Shown piece after piece: positions 7,391-34,106 of a stretch of 37,715 bases of DNA (the stretch's first letter is position 1; every line of letters begins with the position of its first letter). The position numbers and the translations under genes are program-made. The notes under the pieces were generated by a model. The model ran no database searches and had not been told where the DNA came from. It saw nothing but the letters and a program-made list of their open reading frames with translations. The DNA is from Fusobacteriota bacterium. Lineage in GTDB: Bacteria > Fusobacteriota > Fusobacteriia > Fusobacteriales > JBNJFI01. The stretch is from assembly GCA_051746725.1 (NCBI GenBank), contig JBNJFI010000009.1, positions 1 through 37,715 on the forward strand, given 5' to 3'.

Positions 7391-8353
7391 TTATCGTTTC
7401 AAATAATCAGAAACTGTAAGAGCTGCTTTTACTCCCTCAGAAGCAGATATTAATATTTGCTTATATGGTACATTTGTAACATCACCTACGGCAAATATAC
7501 CCTTTTTTGATGTTTCATTCTTACAGTTAATTATTATTTCGTTTTTTTCATTTAACTCTAATAGATCTTTTACAAAAAAGGAATTAGGTTTGTATCCTAT
7601 TTCTATAAAAGCTGCCTTTACTTCAAAAGTAGATTTATCATGATTTTTTCTATTTTCAATAACTACTTTTTCTAAATTATCATCACCTTCTAATCTTAAA
7701 ACTTTAGAATCTGTATATATTTTTATGTTATCCAATGATTTTAATTTATCAACTAAAATCTTATCTGCATTTAATTCACTGGTCCATTCTATCAATCTTA
7801 CCGAATTTGTATATTTAGAAAGATCTATTGCAGCTTCTACTGCAGAATTACCTCCTCCTATTACACAAACATCCTCTTTTTTATATAAAGGACCATCACA
7901 TATGGCACAGTACGTAGCTCCTTTTCCATAAAATTTATCCTCTCCTGGTATGCCTAGTTTTTTATTATGAGTTCCTGTGCTTATAATAACACTCCTAGAT
8001 TTAATTACCTCTCCATTCTCTAATTCTGATCCCTTGATTTCATTATATTTGATATTATTAACTTTTACATCTTCTAGAAAAGGAATATCATATGATTTAA
8101 GATGCTTTTCAAATTGACCTACTAATTCTTCTCCCATTATAGATTCAAACCCCAGATAATTTTCTATTACTCCAGAATCCAAAACTTTTCCTCCTAAATT
8201 CTTAGTCACTAAAATAACATCTAAACCTTTTCGTTTTGAATATATAGCAGAAGCAAAAGCTCCTGGTCCACCACCTATTATAATGACATCGTAAATTTTT
8301 TCATAATCAAAATTTTCTTTCTCCTCTGTATCTAGATCGAAATTAAACTCCAT
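7391..8353 (-). CDS. trxB: Thioredoxin-disulfide reductase (TrxB-like; FAD/NAD(P)-binding, CxxC redox centre). Start re-assigned to the internal ATG.
   Basis: Contains 'YDVIIIGGGPGAFASAIY' (FAD GxGxxG), 'CAICDG' redox motif and 'VCVIGGGNSAVEAA' (NADPH site). The ORF track starts at 8395, but the perfect SD 'aaaggaggag' sits 5 nt before the ATG at 8353 ('MEFNFDLD...'). Confidence 0.85.
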   Translation of the reverse strand: MEFNFDLDTEEKENFDYEKIYDVIIIGGGPGAFASAIYSKRKGLDVILVTKNLGGKVLDSGVIENYLGFESIMGEELVGQFEKHLKSYDIPFLEDVKVNNIKYNEIKGSELENGEVIKSRSVIISTGTHNKKLGIPGEDKFYGKGATYCAICDGPLYKKEDVCVIGGGNSAVEAAIDLSKYTNSVRLIEWTSELNADKILVDKLKSLDNIKIYTDSKVLRLEGDDNLEKVVIENRKNHDKSTFEVKAAFIEIGYKPNSFFVKDLLELNEKNEIIINCKNETSKKGIFAVGDVTNVPYKQILISASEGVKAALTVSDYLKR

Positions 8354-8485
8354 TTCTCCTCCTTTATTGCTTCCTTTTTCTTCTTTATCCCCCATCCTAT
8401 TCTTATATTCGAATTATTTTCATTTTTCCTTTAAATTTATACAAGTTATTTATTTAATTTTTTAATCAATTATAATGTATATCCA

Positions 8486-10632: not shown

Positions 10633-11277
10633 TTATTTGATTTTTTCTATTTCTTCTAAAAATTTCTGAATAGGTTGATCTCCTGTGAATTCGTACTCGT
10701 CATTTATTACTATTTTAGGTACACCTCTTACATTAAATTTTTTTGAAAGCTCCTGAAATGTTTGAGCTTCAATCATCTCTCCTGAAATGTGGTCGTTTAA
10801 CATCGCTAATTTATGAGCTTTAGAAACTGCTCCTGGACAATGCGGACATGATAATGTTACAAAAACTTTTATATCTACATCCTTATCTATCGCTTTTATT
10901 TTTTTAGTTATTTCCTCTGGCAGATCATGACCAGAACCTGAAACTTCTAATATTCCATTTACAAAAGAATTAATCTCATGTCCAGCTGGTATTCCATAAT
11001 ATTTTACTCCATTATTTTTCTTATTAGAATCTAAAATTACTATTGCTGGAGCTTTATCAACTTTAAGATCCTCTGCCATTTTTTTATCTTTTTCTATATC
11101 ATATATTTCTAAATTAATTTTTTCAGATAAATCCTGTATCTCATTCATAAAACCTTTGGTATCCTCACATATTTCACATCCATCTTCTTTTAAAAATAAA
11201 ACTAAATTCACCTCATCTTTTAATTTTGAAAATACTTCTTTTAGTTGACCACTTACTTCTTCATTTAATAAACTCAT
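10633..11277 (-). CDS. Protein disulfide oxidoreductase / glutaredoxin-like protein with two thioredoxin-fold units (CxxC x2).
   Basis: Two CXXC motifs ('CEIC' near the N-terminus and 'CPHCP' in the second half) at the spacing typical of archaeal/Thermotogae PDO-type proteins. The RBS is 'aggagg'. Confidence 0.75.
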   Translation of the reverse strand: MSLLNEEVSGQLKEVFSKLKDEVNLVLFLKEDGCEICEDTKGFMNEIQDLSEKINLEIYDIEKDKKMAEDLKVDKAPAIVILDSNKKNNGVKYYGIPAGHEINSFVNGILEVSGSGHDLPEEITKKIKAIDKDVDIKVFVTLSCPHCPGAVSKAHKLAMLNDHISGEMIEAQTFQELSKKFNVRGVPKIVINDEYEFTGDQPIQKFLEEIEKIK

Positions 11278-22512: not shown

Positions 22513-23358
22513 TCAATTATATTCATTTTTATTATCTTTATTAATATATTCTTCTAAGAATTTAGCAACACCATCTTCATCATTATTTTTAATAACAAAT
22601 GTGGCTGCCTTTTTAACCTGTTTTGGAGCATTTGCCATTGCACAACTAACATCCGCAATTTTAAACATAGAAAGATCGTTTAAATTATCTCCAAAACACA
22701 CTACTTTAGATGGTTTTATGATTTCTTTTAAGTGTTCTAAACCATTTCCTTTAGTACTTCCAATATTAGATATCTCTAACCAATAATGTCCTTCACAATA
22801 TATATCTTCGCCAAAATGATATTCTAAGTCATATTTATCAATTATTTCTTGATATACGGGAAAAATATTTTCCTTTGTATTTATTCCAATAATTCCAAAA
22901 ATTCTATTATTATCGTTGATCTTTAAATCTTCTATCTCATGAAATCTACCTTGATCCTCTTTCCCTCTCATATCAATAAAACACCTTTCTCCTTCATTTC
23001 CAATTTCTCCATGAAAAACCCGATTTCTATCATTATGCTCTAAATTTACAATTGGATTTATATCTCTACTTTTCATCATCTTAATTATATCTCGTGTTAC
23101 CATATGATCAATTTCATTTTGATAAATATATTTCTCTTCCTTTATATCATATACACTTACACCATTTGATATAATAATGGGTAAATTTAAATTTATGCCA
23201 GACAAAACTTTTTTGACAGAAACTAATGGTCTAGCTGTTGCCACTGTGAATAATCCACCTTTTTTAATAAATTCATTTATCACTTTTTTTGTTTTATCAC
23301 TAATTTCTTGATTTGAATTTAATAGTGTTCCATCTAAGTCTGAAACAAATAATGTCAT
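22513..23358 (-). CDS. HAD-superfamily hydrolase, Cof-type (subfamily IIB) phosphatase.
   Basis: 'MTLFVSDLDGTLL' motif I, 'ATARPL' and C-terminal 'FGDNLNDLSM' motif IV. ~281 aa. Confidence 0.85.
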   Translation of the reverse strand: MTLFVSDLDGTLLNSNQEISDKTKKVINEFIKKGGLFTVATARPLVSVKKVLSGINLNLPIIISNGVSVYDIKEEKYIYQNEIDHMVTRDIIKMMKSRDINPIVNLEHNDRNRVFHGEIGNEGERCFIDMRGKEDQGRFHEIEDLKINDNNRIFGIIGINTKENIFPVYQEIIDKYDLEYHFGEDIYCEGHYWLEISNIGSTKGNGLEHLKEIIKPSKVVCFGDNLNDLSMFKIADVSCAMANAPKQVKKAATFVIKNNDEDGVAKFLEEYINKDNKNEYN

Positions 23359-23713: not shown

Positions 23714-23740
23714 AAAAGAGGGAGAACCCCCCTCTTTTTT
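23714..23740 (-). terminator. Intrinsic terminator downstream of the DUF2892 gene.
   Basis: 'aaaagagggagaacccccctctttttt' with stem 'aaaagaggg'/'ccctctttt', flanked by A-run and T-run. Confidence 0.6.
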
Positions 23741-23743
23741 GAA

Positions 23744-23941
23744 TTATTTTTCCACTTTTTCTGAATTACATGTATTTATTCCAGCTAATCTGTATAATGG
23801 ACATTGACCTATTATACCAGTAACTAGAGGAATCACACCTATGATTCCTATCCAATTTTTACTCATAGCCCCCCATACTAATAAGGCAACTCCAAGTATA
23901 ACTCTTATAACTTTATCTACCTTTCCTACATTAACTTTCAT
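23744..23941 (-). CDS. DUF2892-family small membrane protein (YgaP C-terminal-like), often found next to rhodanese genes.
   Basis: 65 aa, two TM helices, 'GxxxG'-rich with a conserved 'CPLY' motif ('IIGQCPLYRLAGINTC'). Confidence 0.6.
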   Translation of the reverse strand: MKVNVGKVDKVIRVILGVALLVWGAMSKNWIGIIGVIPLVTGIIGQCPLYRLAGINTCNSEKVEK

Positions 23942-23954
23942 TTTTACCTCCTAA

Positions 23955-24212
23955 TTAAAGTTCAAAATCCATATTTTTCAATTTTACGCCATCTAATTTT
24001 AAAAGTTCTGCTTCCATTTTAAGCCAAGAACTTTTTTGCCCAACTAATTCTAATATAATTAAACCATCTCTAGGACATTCTTTATCTGTAACTTCATGGA
24101 TTCCCAGTCTAGTTCTAATATTACATCCATATTTTGTCAAGATAGATTGTAATTCTGTTGCATCTTCAATACGATTTTCTAATACTATTCCAACTATCCG
24201 AATATTTTCCAT
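23955..24212 (-). CDS. Small ACT/ferredoxin-like regulatory protein. It resembles the ~85-aa proteins annotated as putative iron-only hydrogenase system regulator (TM1266-like).
   Basis: 85 aa, pattern 'IVGIVLENR...L..IL..YG..I..RLGI...D....GLIILEL'. The family call comes from memory of the family pattern and is not verified. Confidence 0.4.
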   Translation of the reverse strand: MENIRIVGIVLENRIEDATELQSILTKYGCNIRTRLGIHEVTDKECPRDGLIILELVGQKSSWLKMEAELLKLDGVKLKNMDFEL

Positions 24213-24313
24213 TTATTTCACCTCCTTAAAATTTATCTAAAATATTTATATCTTATTAATAAATATACTAAAGATAACACAATTTCCTTTTTTTATTTCA
24301 ACTTTTTTGAAAT

Positions 24314-24358
24314 AAAAAAATTCCAGCATGATAAAAATTATCATACTGGAATTTTCTT
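24314..24358 (-). terminator. Intrinsic terminator downstream of acr3.
   Basis: 'aaaaaaattccagcatgataaaaattatcatactggaattttctt' with a 14-bp stem carrying one mismatch, flanked by A-run and T-run. Confidence 0.6.
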
Positions 24359-25439
24359 AATCATCTAATCCATATTCTTCTAAAACTTCTTTATTAAACC
24401 AACCTGTTGTTTTATTTGCTATTCTAACTAAAAATAACATCACAGGAACTTCAACTAAAACTCCTACAACTGTTGCCAATGTAGCTCCAGAATTTAAACC
24501 AAATAAAGATATTGAGACTGCAACTGCTAGTTCAAAAAAGTTGCTCGCTCCAATAAGTCCAGCTGGGGCTGCAATATTATGTGGTAATTTCCAAAATTTG
24601 GACCAGAAATATGCTATAAAGAATATTAAAACTGTTTGGATAATAAGAGGAATTGCTATTAATCCTATATGTAATGGATTTTTTAGAATTCTTTCTCCTT
24701 GGAATGAAAATATTATAACCAGAGTTAATAATAATCCCATTATTGTTATATTATTAAACTTAGGTAAAAATTTCTTTTCAAAATATTCTTTACCCTTCTT
24801 TTTTACTATTTGATTTCTAGTTATAAATCCTGCTGTAAAAGGAATAACTACAAATAGTATAACAGATAAAAATAATGTATCATATGGTACTGTTATATCA
24901 CTCATTCCCAATAAAATTGCTACTATTGGAGTAAATGCAAATAATATAATTATATCATTAAGCGCTACCTGAACCAATGTATAAGCTGGATTACCTTTGG
25001 TTAGATGACTCCAAACAAAAACCATGGCTGTACAAGGCGCTGCTCCTAAAAGTACTGCTCCTGCTAAATATTCTGTAGAAAGATCGGCTCCTATGATATC
25101 TTTAAATATAACTTTGAAAAACAAGTAAGCTATAAAATACATACTAAACGGTTTTATAAGCCAATTAGTTACTACTGTAACTGTAAGTCCCTTTGGTTGT
25201 TTAGCGTTGTGTAATAAGCTTGTGAAATCAATTTTTAACATCATTGGAAATATCATAAGCCAAATCAAAATTGCTATTGGCATAGATACATTTGCATATT
25301 CAAATTTTTCCAAAAAATTTGGGACACCTGGTAAAAATTGTCCAATTGCTACTCCGGCTATTATACATAATGTAACCCATATTGTTAGATATCTTTCAAA
25401 AAAGCTAATTCCTTCATTTTTCTTATTCTCTTTTTTCAT
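24357..25439 (-). CDS. acr3: Arsenite efflux transporter, ACR3 family.
   Basis: 'FERYLTIWV' N-terminal signature, 10 TM helices, ~360 aa. Confidence 0.9.
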   Translation of the reverse strand: MKKENKKNEGISFFERYLTIWVTLCIIAGVAIGQFLPGVPNFLEKFEYANVSMPIAILIWLMIFPMMLKIDFTSLLHNAKQPKGLTVTVVTNWLIKPFSMYFIAYLFFKVIFKDIIGADLSTEYLAGAVLLGAAPCTAMVFVWSHLTKGNPAYTLVQVALNDIIILFAFTPIVAILLGMSDITVPYDTLFLSVILFVVIPFTAGFITRNQIVKKKGKEYFEKKFLPKFNNITIMGLLLTLVIIFSFQGERILKNPLHIGLIAIPLIIQTVLIFFIAYFWSKFWKLPHNIAAPAGLIGASNFFELAVAVSISLFGLNSGATLATVVGVLVEVPVMLFLVRIANKTTGWFNKEVLEEYGLDD

Positions 25440-25454
25440 TTTTTCACTTCCTTT

Positions 25455-27113
25455 TTATTTTTTTATATATTTTTCTTCCATTGAATACTGCTTATATCCT
25501 CCAGAAATATTATAAACCTCTTTAAATCCCATATTTAACAATAAATTTTGCGCAAGATTTCCAGTTACACCTTTATTACAGTGAACCACAATATCTCGGC
25601 CCTTTAATTGGTCTTTTATTTCAGTTTTTTTACCTCGAATCTCTTGTAAAGGGATATTAATAGCTCCTTTTATATGTCCATCTTTATAATTAGAATTACT
25701 TCTTACATCTATAATCAAAAAATCATCATCTTGTTTTCTTAATTTTGTAGGAGTTATTATTTTATTACGACCATTTATAGCATTATCCAAAACCATCCCA
25801 GTATACATAACAGGATCCTTTGTCGTTGAAAATGGTGGAGCATATCCAAAGTCCATATGAAATAGATCCGATATTTTACCTCCTAAAGTCATAACAGATA
25901 CAAAAACATCAAGTCTCTTATCTATTCCTTTTTTTCCAACTATCTGAACTCCTAATACATTTTGAGTGTTCTTGTCTGCAATTGCCTTTATAACCATAAG
26001 ACTACTATCTTTGAAATATTTTGTCTGGTTATTTTTAATATTATGAATTACTTGAATATCATACCCTTTTTTGATAGCCTCTTTTTCAGTCAAACCTGTG
26101 CATCCAACTCCCATATCGAAGCTTTTAAATATTCCAGTTCCCAAAACACCTCTAAATTCTAGATTTCCACCTGTAATTACATCTCCAGCAATTCTTCCCA
26201 TTTTATTCGCAGTAGATCCCAAAGGAATGTATATTTCTTCACCTGTTATTCTAGAAAAAGTTTGTGCACAATCTCCAACTGCGTATATATCTTTAATATT
26301 TGTTCTCATCTTTTTATCTACTTTTATTGCCTTATTATTTCCCAGTTCAATATCTATATTTTCTGCTAACTTTGTATTTGGTTTGACACCAGTTGCTACA
26401 ATAATCATATCTGCTTCATATGTATTACCATCATCTGTTTTCAATATTTTTCCATTTGGTTCAATTTTAGTTACAGTTTTTCCAAGTTCTAAATTAACCC
26501 CTTTTTTGATTAAGTAATCTCGCAAATGAACTTCTACATCTAAATCAAAATTTGGAATTAATTGCTTTTCTCTTTCGATTAGTGTGAGATCCATATTTCT
26601 ATTATGTAGATTTTCAAGTAATTCTAACCCAATATATCCGCCACCAATAATTATTGCAGATTTTGGATCATTTTGTTTTACATATTTTCTTATTCTTTCT
26701 CCATCTCTTATATTACTAAGAAAAAATATTTTTTCTGTTTTTATTCCATCAATTGGAGGTATTACGGGTTTGGATCCAGTTGCTATAACTAGTTTATCAT
26801 AATCATCTGTAATTATTTTTCCATTTTTCAAGTTTTTAATTCTTAAGATTTTTTTATCTTTGTCTATTTCTAAAACTTCATGTAATATGTTTATCTCAAT
26901 GTCCATTCTATCTTTAAACCATTTTGGATCCCGGGGAGTCAAATCATCTCTTTTTATATAGTCATTTCCTATATAGTATGGTAGTCCACAGCCTGAATAC
27001 GATATATCACTGTCCCGTTCATAAATTACTATCTCATTTTCTTCGTTATTTCTCCTTGCTTTTGCTGCAACAGAAGTTCCAGCTGCTACAGATCCTATTA
27101 TTACTATTTTCAT
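25455..27113 (-). CDS. CoA-disulfide reductase / NADH-oxidase-family flavoprotein with a C-terminal rhodanese domain (CoADR-RHD).
   Basis: N-terminus 'MKIVIIGSVAAGTSVAAKARR' (FAD) and the redox-active Cys region 'SYSGCGLPYYIG'. C-terminal rhodanese with the catalytic loop 'VHCNKGVTGN'. Confidence 0.85.
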   Translation of the reverse strand: MKIVIIGSVAAGTSVAAKARRNNEENEIVIYERDSDISYSGCGLPYYIGNDYIKRDDLTPRDPKWFKDRMDIEINILHEVLEIDKDKKILRIKNLKNGKIITDDYDKLVIATGSKPVIPPIDGIKTEKIFFLSNIRDGERIRKYVKQNDPKSAIIIGGGYIGLELLENLHNRNMDLTLIEREKQLIPNFDLDVEVHLRDYLIKKGVNLELGKTVTKIEPNGKILKTDDGNTYEADMIIVATGVKPNTKLAENIDIELGNNKAIKVDKKMRTNIKDIYAVGDCAQTFSRITGEEIYIPLGSTANKMGRIAGDVITGGNLEFRGVLGTGIFKSFDMGVGCTGLTEKEAIKKGYDIQVIHNIKNNQTKYFKDSSLMVIKAIADKNTQNVLGVQIVGKKGIDKRLDVFVSVMTLGGKISDLFHMDFGYAPPFSTTKDPVMYTGMVLDNAINGRNKIITPTKLRKQDDDFLIIDVRSNSNYKDGHIKGAINIPLQEIRGKKTEIKDQLKGRDIVVHCNKGVTGNLAQNLLLNMGFKEVYNISGGYKQYSMEEKYIKK

Positions 27114-27168
27114 GATCCCTCCTAGATTAATTTTTATTAGTTTTACATCTAGATGATTTTATTTAAAT

Positions 27169-27495
27169 TTACACTTGACAACTAATCTCTTCTTCTAAAT
27201 TCTCAAGATCCTCTTTTAACTTCTTCTCTTTTTTGAATTCAGATATTAGTTTTTCCAAAAAAGGGTGTTTTCTTAATAATTCGTTATTTATAGAGTAATA
27301 AACCCATTGTGCAGATTTTCTAGATTTAATCAATTTAGATCGTTTTAATTTCCCTAAATGTCTAGAAGCATTAGATTGAGTTAAGTCTAAAATTTCTCGA
27401 ATATTACATACACATAATTCTTTTTTTTGAAGAATATTTAATATTCTAATTCGATTTTCGTCGGCAACTGACTTAAGTATATCAGTTAATTCCAT
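27169..27495 (-). CDS. arsR: ArsR-family metalloregulator with the canonical 'ELCVCNI' metal(loid)-binding motif.
   Basis: 'KKELCVCNIREILDLTQSNASRHLGKLKRSKLI' is the alpha3 CVC site followed by the HTH. The RBS is 'aaggaga'. Confidence 0.85.
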   Translation of the reverse strand: MELTDILKSVADENRIRILNILQKKELCVCNIREILDLTQSNASRHLGKLKRSKLIKSRKSAQWVYYSINNELLRKHPFLEKLISEFKKEKKLKEDLENLEEEISCQV

Positions 27496-27525
27496 AATCT
27501 CTCCTTTATTTTGCTTTTTATTTTT

Positions 27526-27580
27526 ATATGAGTATATGAACTTATACTCATATACTACCTTTTTTGATAAACTTTGTCAA
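27526..27580 (-). promoter_or_regulatory. Consensus sigma70 promoter (TTGACA, 17-bp spacer, TAGTAT) for the arsR operon, overlapped and followed by an 11-6-11 perfect palindrome (candidate ArsR operator).
   Basis: Minus-strand reading: 'ttgaca' (rc of 27575-27580), 17 nt, 'tagtat' (rc of 27552-27557). Palindrome 'atatgagtata tgaact tatactcatat' at 27526-27553. Confidence 0.5.
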
Positions 27581-27591
27581 CCTATTTTACC

Positions 27592-28545
27592 CTATTTTTT
27601 AATCTTTTTTATTCTTTTTTCTTTTTTGACAACCATATTCCTTCCATTTTTTTTACCTTCATAAAGTGCATCGTCAGCTCTATTTATAGCCGTTTCAATA
27701 TTTTCTCCAATACAATATTCAGAAACCCCTAGCGTTATAGTAACAGATAATTTCTGGTCATCATAATTATATTGTGCTTTTTCAATTTTTTCTCTAATTC
27801 TAGTAGCTAATTTATATGCTCCATCTAATTTAGTTTCAGGTAACAAAATCAAAAATTCTTCTCCTCCCCATCGAGAAACAAAATCTTGTTTTCTTGATAA
27901 ATCAACAAGATTTTCCGAAACTTTTTTGAGAACATAATCTCCACATTCGTGACCATATTTGTCATTAAATTTTTTAAATTTATCTATGTCTCCCATTATA
28001 AAAGAAAATTCTTTATTATTTCTATCAAATCTAGCTAATTCTTCATTAATCTTTTCCATCATATATCTTCTATTATAAAGGTTTGTAAGAGAATCTTTAG
28101 TTGCTAATCTTTCTAATTTCCTATTTTTTTCTTCTAATTCTTTTGCAAATTCTTCTATCCTTTTTTTCGATCTTCTAAGTTCCAAATGTGTTTGAACTCT
28201 AGCTTTCAACTCCACTCCATTAAATGGTTTTCTTACATAGTCAACTGCTCCCAATTTAAACGCTTTGGCAACACTTTCAATATCAGACTTAGCAGTCAAA
28301 AAGATTATTGGAATATCTTCTGTCTCTGGAGATTTTTTCAATCTTTTACAAACTTCAAAACCATCCATTTCAGGCATCATTATATCTAATAATATTAAAT
28401 CGAGTTCTTTTTCTTTAGCTTCTTTTATAGCAGCTTTTCCCTTTTTTGTAAATTCAATATTAATATTATCCGATTTTAATATATTAGCTGCAACTTGAAT
28501 ATTTTTAGAAACATCATCAACTATTAATATATTATACTTTTCCAT
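27592..28545 (-). CDS. Response regulator with a GGDEF diguanylate cyclase output (REC-GGDEF, PleD/WspR-like).
   Basis: REC 'ILIVDDVSKN...LILLDIMMPEMDG'. GGDEF active site 'RWGGEEF' and I-site-like 'RxxD'. Confidence 0.9.
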   Translation of the reverse strand: MEKYNILIVDDVSKNIQVAANILKSDNINIEFTKKGKAAIKEAKEKELDLILLDIMMPEMDGFEVCKRLKKSPETEDIPIIFLTAKSDIESVAKAFKLGAVDYVRKPFNGVELKARVQTHLELRRSKKRIEEFAKELEEKNRKLERLATKDSLTNLYNRRYMMEKINEELARFDRNNKEFSFIMGDIDKFKKFNDKYGHECGDYVLKKVSENLVDLSRKQDFVSRWGGEEFLILLPETKLDGAYKLATRIREKIEKAQYNYDDQKLSVTITLGVSEYCIGENIETAINRADDALYEGKKNGRNMVVKKEKRIKKIKK

Positions 28546-28594
28546 CTTTTCCTCCTGATTATTACTAAATAATTTTATTATTTATAATTTTAAT

Positions 28595-31500
28595 TTAATT
28601 TTCTACTTCCAATTCTTCTAAAATGCTTGGATATTTTTCTAATAATTTTTCAACGGTATCTAAATCAAATTCATCTAAATTATATAATATATCTGTACCA
28701 TAATTTTTTAAAGTTTCAATCTTTTTTTCTTCCCCATATTTTCGAACTTCCTCTCCAAATTCTTTTATATCCTCTGAAAACTTATTTTCTATTGCAATTT
28801 TCCACTTTTCATAAATCTTATTTTCCAATACTTCCTTTTGCTCTTTTGTTATAATCTCTGTGTCATCTGTATCATCTTTTGAAATAAAAATTTCATCCCT
28901 TTCATATTCTAAAAATTTCATAACTTCTCTATATAAGTCAGAAATTCTTGCTGGCTTATAAATATATCCATCAAAGATCTTTCTTTCTTCTACTTTTTCT
29001 TTAGTCTTAAGAGTTGAAGCTGTAAGAGCTATAATTTTTATATCTTTATCCTGATCTTTAATTTTTCTAGTTGCCTCATATCCATTTAATTTTGGCATTT
29101 TTATATCCATTAATATGAGGTCTATCTCTTCTTTTTGGGCCATTTCCACTGCTTTTTCTCCATCCGAAGCTTCATAGAGTTTTATATTAAATTCTGGATT
29201 AGAAAATATTTCTTTTATTAATTCCCTATTTTCTTTTATATCATCAACAATTAAGATTGAACCAGACTTAAATACAATATCATCATATCTGTTTTCATCT
29301 ATAAAATCTTTAATGCCTTTGGTTGCAGATATTCCTACTTCATTTAAAATTATATTAAATTTTGATCCTTCCCCTTTTTTGCTTTCCAATTCAATTTTAC
29401 CATTTAACATTTCAACCAACTTTTTTGTTATAGCTAGCCCCAAACCTGTTCCTCCGTATTCCTTAGTAATACTCGGCCCCTGCTGGGTAAAAGACTCGAA
29501 GATTTTTTCTTGAGAACTTTCCTCGATACCTATCCCGGTATCTTCAACTGTTATTTTTAAATCTATATTTGATCGATCAGACGATTTAGATATTTGTTTT
29601 AAAATTATTTTTATATATCCCATATCAGTAAATTTAACTGCATTCCCAACTAAATTAAATAAAATTTGACGAACTTTTGCTCTATCTAATATTAAAGTAT
29701 CAGGAACTTCATTATCAATTTCAATTTTAAACTTTAAACCTTTACTTTTTATTTTATGTATAAAAATATTTTCCACTTCTTTTATCAAATAGCTCACATT
29801 AACTGGCTCTTTATCCACTTGCATCTTTCCAGCTTCAATTTTTGAAATATCTAATATATCATTTATAATTGTTAATAGAGCGTCGCTGGAATTTTTAATA
29901 GATTTTAGATATTTTTTCTCTTTTTTTCCCACCATAATCCCTTCCATCAAGTCTGCAAATCCCACTATTGAATTTAGTGGCGTTCTTATTTCATGGCTCA
30001 TATTTGCCAAAAAAGCACTTTTAGCTTTATTAGCTGCCTCTGCTTCTTCTTTCGCTCTTTTTAAACGTTCTTCATATTTTTTATTTCGTGTTATGTCCCT
30101 TGCAACAGCATAAACTCTATTTCTATCTTCATCTGTAGAAGCATTCCATGATAACCAAATAATATCTCCATTTTTATTTTTATAACGATTTTGGAAGTCC
30201 CTAACTTGATTTCCTTCAAATAATCCACTCATTACATCTCTTGTTAAGTCTTTATCTTCCTCGATTACCAGGTCAAAAAAGGGTTTATTCATTAATTCTT
30301 TTTTGGAATATCCTAATATCTTTTCTGCAGCTTGATTAACAAATGTAAAATATCCCGCTTTATTAGAAACAACTATTATATCCTGAGATAATCTGAATAT
30401 CTTTTCTTTTTCTTCCATTGTTTTAGTCTTTTCTGTTATATCAGAAGCAATACTTATATATACCCTTTCACCATCTTTTGATTTACCAAGTGGAGCAGAG
30501 CTAAAATTCCATTTTCGATCTTCACCACTTTTCGTATTTATAGAAAAAACTCCTTCATTTATTTTTTTATCTATTGTATATATTTTTGATATTCTTTTTT
30601 CTATCTTCATTTTATTTTTTTTATAAGCTTTTGTAATCCAATCTCCCATAGTCTTTATTTCTTCTTTTTTGTAGCCAGTTATATCTTCCCAAATATTATT
30701 TATAGTAATAACCTTTCCAAATTCAGTATGAATCATAATTGGGAAAGGAGCATTAAGGATTGCCTTTTCGAATCTATCTTTAGATTCATTCAATTCTTCT
30801 GTTTTATCTCTTAATTCCAAAAGAGCATTTCTTAATTTTGCTGTTCTCTCCTCAACTCTATCCTCTAAATATTCATTTATATCTTCTAGTTTTTCAATGG
30901 CTTCTTTTTTCTCCGAAATATCTTTTATCACACCTAAAATATAAGTTTCATGATTTTTAGATTTTATTTTAGATACTGTTAAGTCACACCAAAGCAATTC
31001 TCCATTTTTACATTTATATCTTTTTTCTAAATTAAATGTTGAGATTTTATTTTTTAAAAGCTTTTCATATTTTTTAATATCTTCTTCTAAATCCTCTTTA
31101 TATGATATATCCTTAAAATTTTTATTTAACAACTCATCATTATTGTATCCTAACATATTACAGAGCTTATTGTTGACTCTTATGATATTTCCCTTTAAAT
31201 TGGTGTGTACCATTCCCACTGCTGCTTGCTCAAAAGTATTCTTGAAATTTTTCTGGGATTCCTCTATTTTTTCTCTTACTTTTACTTTTTCAGTTATATC
31301 GTGGAAAATACAGATTATTCCCTTTTCTTCCTTAAATTCAAATTTATCTATTTTTAATCCTATATGTTTTTCTTTATTTTCTTTATTTTTAATTAATACA
31401 TGAACTTCTCTAGAAATTTCTTTTTTTATATAATCAAATAATGTTTCAGTTTTATTATAACCTTTATTTTTAAAAATAAAATCCTTTGAATTCATATTCT

Positions 31501-31645
31501 TGATTTCATTGGAATTATATCCTAAAATTTCTTTTAAACTTTTATTAAAATCTAAAACTTTATAAATGGAAGAATTATCTAATATTAAAATCCCATCTTT
31601 TATATTATTAACTATAGTTTTATATTTTTCTAAATCCATTTCCAT
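28595..31645 (-). CDS. Cytoplasmic multi-PAS hybrid sensor histidine kinase (about 4 PAS, HisKA, HATPase_c, REC, plus an acidic C-terminal tail).
   Basis: Repeated PAS cores, e.g. 'AAVGMVHTNLKGNIIRVNNKLCNMLGY'. H-box 'SHEIRTPLNSIVGFADLM'. ATPase 'VEDTGIGI', 'GGTGLGLAITKKLVEMLNG'. REC 'ILIVDDIKENREL...LILMDIKMPKLNG'. No TM segment. Confidence 0.9.
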   Translation of the reverse strand: MEMDLEKYKTIVNNIKDGILILDNSSIYKVLDFNKSLKEILGYNSNEIKNMNSKDFIFKNKGYNKTETLFDYIKKEISREVHVLIKNKENKEKHIGLKIDKFEFKEEKGIICIFHDITEKVKVREKIEESQKNFKNTFEQAAVGMVHTNLKGNIIRVNNKLCNMLGYNNDELLNKNFKDISYKEDLEEDIKKYEKLLKNKISTFNLEKRYKCKNGELLWCDLTVSKIKSKNHETYILGVIKDISEKKEAIEKLEDINEYLEDRVEERTAKLRNALLELRDKTEELNESKDRFEKAILNAPFPIMIHTEFGKVITINNIWEDITGYKKEEIKTMGDWITKAYKKNKMKIEKRISKIYTIDKKINEGVFSINTKSGEDRKWNFSSAPLGKSKDGERVYISIASDITEKTKTMEEKEKIFRLSQDIIVVSNKAGYFTFVNQAAEKILGYSKKELMNKPFFDLVIEEDKDLTRDVMSGLFEGNQVRDFQNRYKNKNGDIIWLSWNASTDEDRNRVYAVARDITRNKKYEERLKRAKEEAEAANKAKSAFLANMSHEIRTPLNSIVGFADLMEGIMVGKKEKKYLKSIKNSSDALLTIINDILDISKIEAGKMQVDKEPVNVSYLIKEVENIFIHKIKSKGLKFKIEIDNEVPDTLILDRAKVRQILFNLVGNAVKFTDMGYIKIILKQISKSSDRSNIDLKITVEDTGIGIEESSQEKIFESFTQQGPSITKEYGGTGLGLAITKKLVEMLNGKIELESKKGEGSKFNIILNEVGISATKGIKDFIDENRYDDIVFKSGSILIVDDIKENRELIKEIFSNPEFNIKLYEASDGEKAVEMAQKEEIDLILMDIKMPKLNGYEATRKIKDQDKDIKIIALTASTLKTKEKVEERKIFDGYIYKPARISDLYREVMKFLEYERDEIFISKDDTDDTEIITKEQKEVLENKIYEKWKIAIENKFSEDIKEFGEEVRKYGEEKKIETLKNYGTDILYNLDEFDLDTVEKLLEKYPSILEELEVEN

Positions 31646-32458: not shown

Positions 32459-32935
32459 ATGATATATGGAGTTACTTTTTTATTATTAATCATTTTATTT
32501 TTTAAGGATAAAGAAAAAACTATAAAGGGCTTTAAATTAGGAATAAAAAAACTTTTTAAACAATTACCTGTATTTTTTAATATGATGGCTTTAGTTGCTA
32601 TTTCTTTATATTTTATATCAGATGATTTAATAATAAGATTTCTAGGAGAAGATAGTGGTAATATCGGTATGGCTTTAGGTGCTGGCTTTGGATCAGTAGC
32701 TATTATGCCTGGTTTTATAGCTTTTCCTCTGGCAGGTTTGCTACTTGAAAAAGGAATCTCTTACATGGTTTTGGCGAGTTTTACAAATACTCTTATGATG
32801 GTTGGAGTAGCTAGTTTTCCTGTTGAAAAAGAGTATTTTGGAGTAAAGGTGTCCATCATTAGGAATATTATTGGTTTTATTATGGCTATAGTAGTTGCGT
32901 TAATAATAGGTTTATTATATGGGGAGTTGATTTAA
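32459..32935 (+). CDS. Predicted permease, N-terminal half of a split COG0701/DUF318-type 'two-component membrane permease'.
   Basis: Four or five TM helices and a Gly-rich 'GMALGAGFGSVAIMPGFIAFPLAGLLL'. The stop TAA (32933-32935) is directly abutted by the TTG start of the next ORF. Confidence 0.65.
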   Translation: MIYGVTFLLLIILFFKDKEKTIKGFKLGIKKLFKQLPVFFNMMALVAISLYFISDDLIIRFLGEDSGNIGMALGAGFGSVAIMPGFIAFPLAGLLLEKGISYMVLASFTNTLMMVGVASFPVEKEYFGVKVSIIRNIIGFIMAIVVALIIGLLYGELI

Positions 32936-33457
32936 TTGAAAGAAAAATTACAAAAATTATTGATCCCAATATTATTTTTTGGGGGAATTATAATAAGTTC
33001 AATAATAGGTTTTGCACCTGGAAAGGGAATTGGAATTAATTTTGTTAAATTTTTTAAAAGTATGATCTCATTTTTACCAGCAGTTTTTATAATGATTGGA
33101 TTATTTGAGGTTTTTGTAGATAAAAAAACTATCGAAAAACATCTAGGAGAAGATTCAAAATTCCATGCTTATCTTTGGGCTATATTATTATCAGGAACTA
33201 CTGTTGGAGGTTTATTTGTAGCTTTTCCTGTGGCTCATTCTCTTTACAAAAAAGGGGCTAAAATAAGTATCATTTTTACATATATCGGTGCAGCCGCTGT
33301 TGCGCGTGTTCCCATGACACTTTTTGAAGCTTCTTATGTGGGGTTAAAGTTTACAATTATAAGGTTATCAGTCTCACTTCCATTTATAATAATAAGTAGT
33401 ATCTTGTTGGAAAAATATCTCAAAAATTCAAATTTTAAAATCAAAAAAGTTGCTTAA
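32936..33457 (+). CDS. Predicted permease, C-terminal half of the split COG0701/DUF318-type permease. TTG start, translationally coupled.
   Basis: TM-rich, 'LWAILLSGTTVGGLFVAFPVAHSLYKKGAKISIIFTYIGAAAVARVPMTLFEA'. It starts immediately after the upstream stop. Confidence 0.65.
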   Translation: MKEKLQKLLIPILFFGGIIISSIIGFAPGKGIGINFVKFFKSMISFLPAVFIMIGLFEVFVDKKTIEKHLGEDSKFHAYLWAILLSGTTVGGLFVAFPVAHSLYKKGAKISIIFTYIGAAAVARVPMTLFEASYVGLKFTIIRLSVSLPFIIISSILLEKYLKNSNFKIKKVA

Positions 33458-33615: not shown

Positions 33616-34035
33616 CTACCAACTACCTACATTTTCCATAGAAACCCATGGTTCTTTTTTATCTAATTTTTCACCTTTTTGTAAAATTTCTATTGATATA
33701 TTATCTGGAGTTTTTACAAATGCCATATGTCCATCTCGTGGAGGCCTATTAATTAAAACTCCCATTTCTTGTAATTTTTCACAGGTTTCATATATATCAT
33801 CTACTAAAATAGCTATATGACCAAAATTTCTCGCATTTCCATAATCCTCGTTACTATCCCAATTATAAGTAAGTTCTATTTCTGATCCACCTTCATCGTC
33901 TCTTAGATAACATAAAGTACATTCCCATTCAGGATACTCATTTTCTTTTATTATTTCAAATCCAAATCCTTTTACAAAAAAGTTTTTACTTTCTTCTAAA
34001 TCAGATACTCTTATCATACAGTGTGCTAATTTCAT
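33616..34035 (-). CDS. gloA: Glyoxalase I / lactoylglutathione-lyase-like VOC-family enzyme.
   Basis: 'MKLAHCMIRVSDLEESKNFF..GFGFE' plus 'GHIAILVDDIYETCEKLQEMGV' metal-binding pattern. The start is re-assigned to the ATG at 34035 (SD 'ggaggtaaaa'). Confidence 0.8.
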   Translation of the reverse strand: MKLAHCMIRVSDLEESKNFFVKGFGFEIIKENEYPEWECTLCYLRDDEGGSEIELTYNWDSNEDYGNARNFGHIAILVDDIYETCEKLQEMGVLINRPPRDGHMAFVKTPDNISIEILQKGEKLDKKEPWVSMENVGSW

Positions 34036-34106
34036 TTTTACCTCCATTTTATTTTGAAAAATTCAAAATTCTTATTATTGTCTACGTTTTCTAAGTAAGT
34101 TTATAT

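Follow-up and report, generated by a model that had tools for sequence, protein, structure and literature searches.

A CoA-disulfide reductase-rhodanese flavoprotein encoded between arsR and acr3 in a Fusobacteriota arsenite-resistance operon

Introduction

What role might a coenzyme A (CoA)-disulfide reductase, fused to a rhodanese domain, have in an operon for arsenite resistance? The question is raised by a 37.7-kilobase (kb) contig, with a G+C content of ~28%, from a metagenome-assembled genome of a Fusobacteriota bacterium. Note that we refer to the whole of this contig as the window. Here, a gene called cdr, or pno, lies between genes for an ArsR repressor and an ACR3 arsenite pump. We report that arsR-cdr-acr3 is a genuine three-gene arsenite-resistance operon. 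Judged by sequence, the flavoprotein encoded by cdr is a member of a distinct, ars-specific, clade of CoA-disulfide reductase-rhodanese (CoADR-RHD) proteins. By analogy with characterised relatives, we give a probability of roughly 0.5 to its being an NADH- and CoA-dependent sulfane-sulfur reductase that supports arsenite export.

The association between CoADR-RHD and ars genes was published earlier, and the present locus is a further case, from the Fusobacteriota. Serrano et al. (2017) described, in Fusibacter sp. 3D3, the order arsR > 'pyridine nucleotide-disulfide oxidoreductase' > acr3 > arsC, in which the second product is a CoADR with a rhodanese domain and the motif CNKGVTGN (PMC5525254). 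The authors called this a new family of unknown function and asked if it might be a new arsenate reductase. They also noted that there was no similarity to the Acr2 loop and that arsC was present alongside (PMC5525254). Its later name is pno (Acosta-Grinok et al. 2022, PMC9751042). Fusibacter and the window share the core order arsR > CoADR-RHD > acr3, the domain architecture, and the CNKGVTGN loop. Unlike the window, which has neither arsC nor arsD, Fusibacter has the first of these directly downstream and the second upstream, and belongs to the Bacillota rather than the Fusobacteriota.

A second precedent is Exiguobacterium, where 'cdr' is downstream of arsB in 36/36 genomes (Castro-Severyn et al. 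2019, PMC6775490). The Cdr protein, with ArsA, was the most up-regulated whether As(III) or As(V) was supplied, and the authors guessed that it acts as an antioxidant or regenerates thiols (PMC6775490). This operon, arsR(D A Fe-S)B-cdr, has cdr as its last gene, and the encoded proteins, which share 51-53% identity with the window flavoprotein, fall in the same CoADR-RHD clade (L030, L031, L038 and others). However, the pump is ArsB with ArsDA, rather than ACR3, a HesB-like gene is present, and the hosts are aerobic Bacilli. Other reports pass over the gene. In the Terribacillus 'arsRB' paper, it is listed downstream of arsB but not discussed (PMC8755942). Similarly, papers on Listeria give the pLI100/LGI2 operon as arsR1D2R2A2B1B2, with CoADR-RHD omitted (PMC8508797); the pLI100 ars operon is reported to be 99% identical to that of Listeria genomic island LGI2. 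Members of the class are usually annotated just as 'FAD-dependent oxidoreductase' and omitted from published operon formulas.

Results

The arsR, cdr and acr3 genes form an arsenite-resistance operon

Nearly all window genes, in a list of open reading frames (ORFs), are on the minus strand. An initial annotation of the DNA had described five adjacent ORFs on this strand, from arsR to a gene for a DUF2892 membrane protein, as an ars-type cluster. All five are present where described, and the ars-type character is borne out by family tests of ArsR and ACR3. The cluster is, however, smaller than proposed. While arsR-cdr-acr3 stands as a unit, the two genes beyond are separated from it by a terminator after acr3. 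The features of the operon, in the direction of transcription, are as follows.

27552..27580, minus strand: sigma-70-type promoter, TTGACA-17 nt-TAGTAT, read directly from the DNA; serves arsR-cdr-acr3
27525..27554, no strand assigned: putative ArsR operator, a perfect 12-6-12 inverted repeat, TATATGAGTATA-agttca-TATACTCATATA, overlapping the -10 hexamer
27169..27495, minus strand: arsR, ArsR/SmtB repressor, 108 amino acids
25455..27113, minus strand: cdr/pno, ars-clade CoADR-RHD flavoprotein, 552 amino acids
24357..25439, minus strand: acr3, ACR3-family arsenite efflux permease, 360 amino acids
24305..24359, minus strand: intrinsic terminator after acr3, a hairpin of ~19 base pairs then a T-run, identified by folding and as an inverted repeat

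The ArsR protein matches HTH_5 (48.6 bits) and exceeds the cut-off of NF033788 (90.7 bits versus 55). Its cysteines include Cys28 and Cys30, in the helix 3 motif ELCVCNI, and the C-terminal Cys106. The motif had been noted initially as an arsenite site, and it is real. Furthermore, in an alignment from 56 orthologous loci, the CxC motif is nearly universal among the ArsR proteins. Hence ArsR is, by its sequence, a repressor with the As(III)-type cysteine site found in ars operons. Most of the aligned proteins also end in a conserved cysteine, or cysteine pair, within the last 1-4 residues (...SCQV, ...GC, ...SCDC, ...ITCC). The C-terminal cysteine of ArsR may be a third As(III) ligand, provided by the tail.

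The permease scores 393.4 bits with the ACR3 equivalog model TIGR00832, for which the cut-off is 282.8, and has the motifs GAAPCTAMV (Cys136) and LVEVPVM (Glu330). The transcription unit is thus predicted to include an arsenite efflux permease, as is characteristic of ars operons.

Both a promoter and a palindrome had been proposed upstream of arsR, and both were found. The ars promoter is the joint top promoter-like site between positions 23300 and 27800, with a score of 10/12. Note that, the DNA being AT-rich, promoter-like hexamers are no more frequent than chance predicts (27 found, 27.5 expected). Hence, the promoter call rests on position and on the overlapping operator. The exact palindrome, TATATGAGTATA/TATACTCATATA, occurs once in the window. 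Related half-sites (TATGAGTATA / ATATTAGTATAT) are found 5' of arsR at four other loci, from Ilyobacter, Propionigenium and two Spirochaetota (L004, L015, L007, L008), between the arsR promoter and the ribosome-binding site. We regard the palindrome as a putative promoter-proximal operator of the kind expected for an ars operon.

The arsR-cdr gap is 55 nucleotides, the cdr-acr3 gap is 15 nucleotides, and no internal terminator was found in either. A terminator isolating the CoADR-RHD gene, which would have counted against the initial annotation, was therefore not seen. The arrangement supports co-transcription of cdr between arsR and acr3. Conversely, the terminator after acr3 is strong; the hairpin has a folding free energy of -28.2 kcal/mol (z -7.38), and 0/200 shuffled sequences fold equally well. 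Hence, the DNA is organised as arsR-cdr-acr3 plus a separate two-gene unit.

An Rfam scan gave nothing at the gathering threshold. The sole match below threshold, at 24301-24362 on the plus strand, was to sau-19, a Staphylococcus small RNA (33 bits; gathering score 80). Since it coincides with the hairpin after acr3, it most likely reflects terminator-like structure only, and was dismissed.

Directly upstream of the ars promoter, at 27592-31645 on the minus strand, are genes for a 1016-amino acid multi-PAS hybrid histidine kinase and a response-regulator diguanylate cyclase. There is no terminator between these genes and the ars promoter.

The flavoprotein belongs to a distinct CoADR-RHD clade

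The protein encoded by cdr has three domains: PF07992 Pyr_redox_2 (228.6 bits), PF02852 Pyr_redox_dim (60.2 bits) and a C-terminal PF00581 Rhodanese (74.5 bits). The redox-active residue is Cys42, in SYSGCGLPY, and the rhodanese cysteine is Cys512, in HCNKGVTGN. Thus the domains and catalytic loop, both of which had been read from the sequence initially, are confirmed. A further motif, GGGYIGLE...LIE, suggests that NADH is preferred, by the general rules of Rossmann folds.

The protein aligns end to end with the closest solved structures: the CoADR-RHD of Bacillus anthracis (BaCoADR-RHD, 3ICR, 387 bits), Npsr of Shewanella loihica (3NTA) and CoAPR of Enterococcus faecalis (EfCoAPR, 8A56). Scores range from 346 to 387 bits. 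Cys42 and Cys512 align with the catalytic cysteines of 3ICR and 3NTA, and they are the sole invariant cysteines of the ars clade. We also considered chelation of As(III) by the flavoprotein. This was rejected since there are only two invariant cysteines, and the equivalent pair in CoAPR is ~27 Å apart.

To place the protein, we compared it with 1.84 billion cluster representatives (50% identity). The motifs SYSxCG, LGSTANKMGR and CN[KSG]G[VT][TS]GN occur together only in the nearest representatives. Mainstream proteins, of the CoADR-RHD, Npsr and CoAPR-like kinds, instead have SFANCGLPY, LAGPANKQGR and CxxGxR[GS]Y, the last of which is the prevailing loop among the more distant representatives. 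BaCoADR-RHD, Npsr and CoAPR themselves share ~35-40% identity with the window protein. Hence, the CxxGxR loop of characterised CoADR-RHD enzymes is replaced, in the window, by CNKGVTGN. The window protein has all three clade motifs (SYSxCG, LGSTANK[MT]GR, CN[KSG]G[VT][TS]GN), and its gene is flanked by arsR and acr3.

More distant representatives mark the edge of the clade. One (P0132, 49% identity), with the loop variant CNSGVSGN, is ars-linked, and adjoins arsR-arsA-arsD. Four representatives with 37-43% identity are not ars-linked, and one of these adjoins genes for a thioredoxin and a free rhodanese. Another of the four, P0136, with 42% identity, is a partial exception, as it has a near-identical loop, CNKGVTAN, and LGSTANKTGR, yet is not ars-linked. 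The loop alone is therefore no predictor of an ars link.

The clade is linked to ars genes in four phyla

The initial annotation had suggested that co-occurrence with arsR and acr3 be sought around CoADR-RHD orthologues. One genome per GTDB species was scanned with the clade peptides LGSTANKM and CNKG[VT]TGN, giving at least 552 relatives. The best 80 of these, 50-61% identical to the window protein, were analysed with their flanks. The outcome was strongly positive. In 56/80 loci, an efflux gene, for either ACR3 or ArsB, was found no more than 6 kb away. At least one ars structural gene is found, in the same interval, in 65 loci, ArsR in 62, ArsD and ArsA in 28, and ArsC in 11. The gene next to CoADR-RHD, on the same strand, is that for ArsB in 21 of the 80 loci and that for ACR3 in 20. 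Checks of the neighbouring clusters identified ArsA (NCBIfam, 832 bits), ArsB (694 bits), thioredoxin-type ArsC (219 bits) and a second ACR3 clade (437 bits). ArsD was recognised at equivalog level, and both ArsM and an ArsE-type thioredoxin at subfamily level.

Four phyla show the link, namely Fusobacteriota, Spirochaetota, Bacteroidota and Bacillota, the last with Clostridia, Negativicutes and Bacilli. It persists through three different orders of the genes, with pumps from either of two unrelated families, and with ACR3 of both clades. For example, close relatives in Ilyobacter (57-61% identity) have the order arsR-acr3-CoADR-RHD. The gene class is thus a widespread component of ars operons, and the window itself is an ordinary example.

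Mobile elements also have the gene. In PLSDB, 42 plasmids encode 48-58% identical copies, and these include enterococcal and staphylococcal plasmids and Listeria pLI100. The pLI100 and pSSP1 proteins are 48-49% identical to that of the window and have the clade loop (YCNKGVTGN in pLI100, YCNKGTTGN in pSSP1). In Listeria innocua pLI100, the order is arsR-arsD-arsR-arsA, two ACR3-type 'arsB' genes, then CoADR-RHD, all between copies of IS1216. In Staphylococcus saprophyticus pSSP1, CoADR-RHD is mid-operon (arsD-arsA-CoADR-RHD-arsR-arsB-arsC). Unlike the window operon, the LGI2/pLI100 and pSSP1 cassettes are plasmid- or island-borne and IS1216-flanked, with the gene unnamed ('FAD-dependent oxidoreductase').

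Three observations concern genes at these loci. First, the pLI100 genes annotated as arsB ('B1' and 'B2'; L099, 4816-8674) belong to the ACR3 family. Their products share 69% and 36% identity with ACR3 of the window, and each represents a different ACR3 clade; CoADR-RHD is 23 nucleotides downstream. Second, a triad of genes adjoins CoADR-RHD in Spirochaetota (L010, L012, L013, L016) and at L037, L061 and L041, either replacing ACR3 or adding to it. The triad encodes a PF03773-type permease, an MTH895/ArsE-family thioredoxin-like protein (~79 amino acids) and a cysteine-rich protein of ~139 amino acids with no NCBIfam match. Third, in 22/80 loci, a small IscA/HesB-family protein (~100-130 amino acids, with a CGP motif and a C-terminal CC) is encoded between arsA and arsB/CoADR-RHD. 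These are ars operons of Bacillaceae (L030, L031, L033, L038, L040, L051, L053 and others).

The last of these genes bears on one alternative function, whereby the flavoprotein supplies sulfide, or handles persulfide, for repair of Fe-S clusters during arsenic stress, with the HesB/IscA-like protein as partner. As well as occurring in those 22 loci, the partner is drawn as 'Fe-S' in the figure of the Exiguobacterium operon (PMC6775490). However, no HesB gene was found in the window or in any Fusobacteriota or Spirochaetota locus, so it is not an obligate partner. We consider this explanation distinctly unlikely.

The identity of the neighbours, and of the regulator, also bears on whether this is an arsenic operon at all. 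The alternative, raised initially, is a reactive-sulfur stress operon. This would comprise an ArsR-family persulfide sensor similar to BigR or SqrR, a persulfide reductase, and an ACR3-like exporter of sulfur anions. Consistent with such a scheme, the CoAPR and Npsr relatives act on persulfides, and a DUF2892 gene is nearby; DUF2892 and rhodanese domains are linked in E. coli YgaP. Conversely, the window ArsR scores 37.6 bits with the BigR model, for which the cut-off is 155, and has the As(III)-type CxC pattern in helix 3. A persulfide sensor of the BigR/SqrR type is ruled out on this basis. Similarly, ACR3 is above its equivalog cut-off, and the DUF2892 gene is behind a terminator and not conserved. 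At other loci, the partners of CoADR-RHD are ArsA, ArsD, ArsB, ACR3, ArsC and ArsM, and the regulators have the same As(III)-type CxC. Partners typical of cst-like operons (PDO/CstB, SQR, TauE and free rhodaneses) were found neither in the window cluster nor in the orthologous loci. Finally, both As(III) and As(V) raise the level of an orthologue (PMC6775490). Hence, the sulfur-stress alternative is not borne out, and we judge it highly improbable.

The rhodanese loop is not that of an Acr2-type arsenate reductase

The initial annotation remarked that the stretch has no ArsC-type arsenate reductase, and this holds for the window. No ArsC was found in Pfam and NCBIfam scans of 28 ORFs, which included ORFs of ArsC size (122-173 amino acids). 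Likewise, a tblastn search of the window with 12 thioredoxin-type ArsC sequences gave no match below E=0.07. Glutaredoxin-type ArsC was covered by the hidden Markov model scans only.

Could the flavoprotein fill this gap? An NADH-driven arsenate reductase replacing ArsC would use Cys512 to attack arsenate, as in Acr2 or Cdc25, and CoA to resolve the adduct. The flavoprotein half would then re-reduce the CoA mixed disulfide. Besides being absent from the window, arsC is within 6 kb in only 11/80 orthologous loci, and such an activity was already suggested for the orthologue of Fusibacter (PMC5525254). In addition, Terribacillus arsR and arsB are induced by arsenate, though a bona fide arsC was not found (PMC8755942).

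The catalytic loop points elsewhere. Acr2p, LmACR2 and Cdc25 share with the window protein the rhodanese fold, and a histidine before the catalytic cysteine. However, they have their own 7-residue HCX5R loop, use glutathione/glutaredoxin, and have no fused flavoprotein. The HCX5R motif is not present in HCNKGVTGN, which has no arginine. Rather, the window loop aligns, gap-free, with loops of the 6-residue sulfurtransferase type (Npsr, CstB-like and PspE). Cdc25 chains align with residues 10-40 of the rhodanese domain only, its N-terminal part, and not with the loop. A better match is bovine rhodanese (thiosulfate sulfurtransferase, 1RHD), in which CRKGVTA corresponds to CNKGVTG at C-x-K-G-V-T, with equal loop length. 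Even so, the bovine enzyme has tandem domains, no flavoprotein, and arginine at the +1 position, where asparagine is found here; furthermore, the lysine is not invariant in the ars clade.

Gene content is a second objection. The cdr gene shares an operon with thioredoxin-type arsC in pSSP1, and at Oceanobacillus, Exiguobacterium and Fusibacter loci. A weaker point comes from Terribacillus, which has arsR-arsB-'pyridine nucleotide-disulfide oxidoreductase'; after feeding with arsenate, its cells contained arsenate only (PMC8755942). This result is for intracellular fractions only, and the identity of Te3674 is provisional. We conclude that an Acr2-like arsenate reductase, as a stand-in for ArsC, is very unlikely, because HCX5R is missing, the loop is of the short sulfur-transfer type, and cdr co-occurs with arsC. 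Hence the suggestion of an Acr2/Cdc25-type activity, made initially, is not supported.

Sulfane-sulfur reduction is the favoured function

The reading we favour is the other one proposed initially, that the flavoprotein handles per-/polysulfide or thioarsenate. The basis is analogy with CoAPR (8A56), Shewanella loihica Npsr (3NTA) and B. anthracis CoADR-RHD (3ICR), which share the two-module fold and have catalytic cysteines that align with both of those in the window protein. In CoAPR, both cysteines are required, and that of the rhodanese domain is persulfidated in vivo (PMC9405070). The two sites are ~27 Å apart, and the proposed mechanism has the bound CoA swing from one to the other (PMC9405070). 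Given the shared fold, persulfide chemistry with CoA as swinging arm is likely to be common to the window protein and these enzymes. The genetic settings differ. The regulator of CoAPR is CstR, and its operon is a cst-like one for sulfur, while the window gene is with ArsR and an arsenite pump.

The following sequence of events can be envisaged. From family knowledge and the DNA sequence, ArsR would sit on the palindrome overlapping the -10 hexamer, and would be released when As(III) binds Cys28 and Cys30. ACR3 would export As(OH)3. As for E. faecalis CoAPR and Shewanella Npsr, the rhodanese Cys512 would pick up sulfane sulfur. The tightly bound CoA would then carry this sulfur, as CoA persulfide or a mixed disulfide, to Cys42 and flavin adenine dinucleotide (FAD). 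There, NADH would reduce it to H2S, with regeneration of CoASH. During arsenic stress, the role may be to free the CoA pool, or As-S species, of sulfane sulfur in bacteria relying on CoA and not glutathione. The outcome would be that arsenic is kept as free As(III), which ACR3 or ArsB can pump, and that CoA is kept usable.

A simpler possibility is that the enzyme is a plain CoA-disulfide reductase, or antioxidant, which regenerates CoASH oxidised or sequestered under arsenic stress, with the rhodanese domain as an accessory. The clade occurs solely in phyla where glutathione is generally missing, and BaCoADR-RHD, the closest solved relative, was deposited as a CoA-disulfide reductase. A role of this sort was proposed for Exiguobacterium Cdr (PMC6775490), and would parallel arsT and arsX (thioredoxin reductase and thioredoxin) in other ars operons (PMC6205960). 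However, the window protein is below the CoADR equivalog cut-offs (TIGR03385, 456.2 versus 578.8 bits; NF007123, 421.1 versus 458 bits). Moreover, the rhodanese cysteine and the clade-specific loop are invariant across four phyla. Hence, we argue that the rhodanese domain is needed for catalysis, as in CoAPR. A plain CoA-disulfide reductase is possible but, in our view, doubtful.

Several points weigh against sulfane-sulfur reduction as the function, or limit the data behind it. The CxxGxR loop of CoAPR, Npsr and BaCoADR-RHD differs from that of the ars clade, and so their activities are not simply transferable. Within the clade, the loop lysine is not invariant, with CNSG or CNGG in 17/80 loci. 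The literature yielded no biochemical or genetic test of an ars-clade enzyme, and arsenic induction is known from the Exiguobacterium orthologue only (PMC6775490). With respect to gene linkage, no ars gene was found within 6 kb in 15/80 loci, though several are on short or truncated contigs. The 80 loci were picked by clade motifs, and ranked by similarity to the window protein; hence, they describe the ars clade only. Note also that ORFs and clusters at these loci derive from simple ORF calling and BLAST, with one representative per cluster checked against NCBIfam.

Sulfane-sulfur reduction has a more specific form, which we put forward tentatively. Here, ars-clade CoADR-RHD would be an NADH-dependent reductase, or desulfurase, for thioarsenate, and perhaps also for thio-methylarsenicals. 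The rhodanese loop would take the sulfane sulfur of monothioarsenate (AsO3S3-) onto Cys512, leaving arsenite. The sulfur would pass, as CoA persulfide, to Cys42 and FAD, and leave as H2S at the cost of NADH. ACR3 or ArsB would export the resulting arsenite, which is exactly the species handled by the adjacent pump. Monothioarsenate is a structural analogue of thiosulfate, a likeness pointed out by Edwardson et al., as cited in PMC6620896, and the rhodanese loop is similar to that of thiosulfate sulfurtransferase. Furthermore, Ben Fekih et al. (2018) expected a 'reduction and subsequent efflux' route to thioarsenate resistance, which was unverified. We found no literature that ties a rhodanese to thioarsenate turnover.

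If thioarsenate is indeed the substrate, a long-postulated mechanism of thioarsenate resistance would be identified, and the 'reduction and subsequent efflux' route supplied. More generally, the function, once established, would extend the ars repertoire by an enzymatic step, and would connect resistance to arsenic with the chemistry of CoA and sulfane sulfur. The value of the present work is in documenting the breadth of the clade and in providing a thioarsenate hypothesis that can be tested. In this regard, ars-clade proteins are soluble flavoenzymes with solved homologues.

Genes downstream of acr3

The two genes that follow acr3, and the end of their unit, are listed below.

23955..24212, minus strand: 85-amino acid CPF_0552/TM1266-like small protein (NF052672); a neighbour, probably in a separate transcription unit
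23744..23941, minus strand: 65-amino acid DUF2892/YgaP-like membrane protein (PF11127); neighbour only
23719..23732, minus strand: terminator-like GC hairpin with a T-run; ends the two-gene unit

The 85-amino acid protein scores 99.6 bits with the CPF_0552 family model NF052672 (cut-off 85), and matches TM1266-like proteins below cut-off only. The 65-amino acid protein matches PF11127, YgaP-like_TM/DUF2892, with 78.8 bits. The genes are co-oriented and 13 nucleotides apart; a gap of 144 nucleotides separates the first from acr3. A second copy of the operator was looked for, 5' of the 85-amino acid gene, and not found.

Both genes had been included in the cluster initially. In 83 CoADR-RHD loci, no homologue of either was found (for DUF2892, at E<=1e-5). 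Homologues of the 85-amino acid protein adjoin radical-SAM/BATS, ThiC/ThiD and Rrf2/ZIP genes, and never ars genes. Hence, given the terminator upstream, the lack of conservation, and the other contexts of the 85-amino acid family, we rejected these genes as members of a conserved ars module. At L084-L092, homologues of the 85-amino acid protein are beside radical-SAM/BATS enzymes together with either Rrf2/ZIP or divergent ThiC/ThiD2-TMP genes. Such contexts hint that the protein has to do with the regulation of radical-SAM enzymes, thiamine or metal cofactors, and not with arsenic.

Other genes in the window

Elsewhere in the window, two adjacent half-size ORFs, at 32459-32935 and 32936-33457 on the plus strand, encode proteins of 158 and 173 amino acids. 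Each corresponds to half of an ArsP_1 'predicted permease' (PF03773). Homologous split pairs are found between arsR and CoADR-RHD at L006, and near ars genes at L016 and L043. Hence, from its homologues, the pair may be a second arsenic-related transporter, ~5 kb from the operon. Beside it, at 33616-34047 on the minus strand, is a gene for a glyoxalase-I-like protein (PF00903), which scores 99.5 bits with TIGR00068 (cut-off 120). It may be either an ordinary glyoxalase or a relative of the ArsI-like C-As lyases. Two further redox proteins are encoded on the minus strand, at 7391-8395 and 10633-11277. They are a flavoprotein similar to thioredoxin reductase and AhpF, and a protein disulfide oxidoreductase with two domains (264 bits with TIGR02187).

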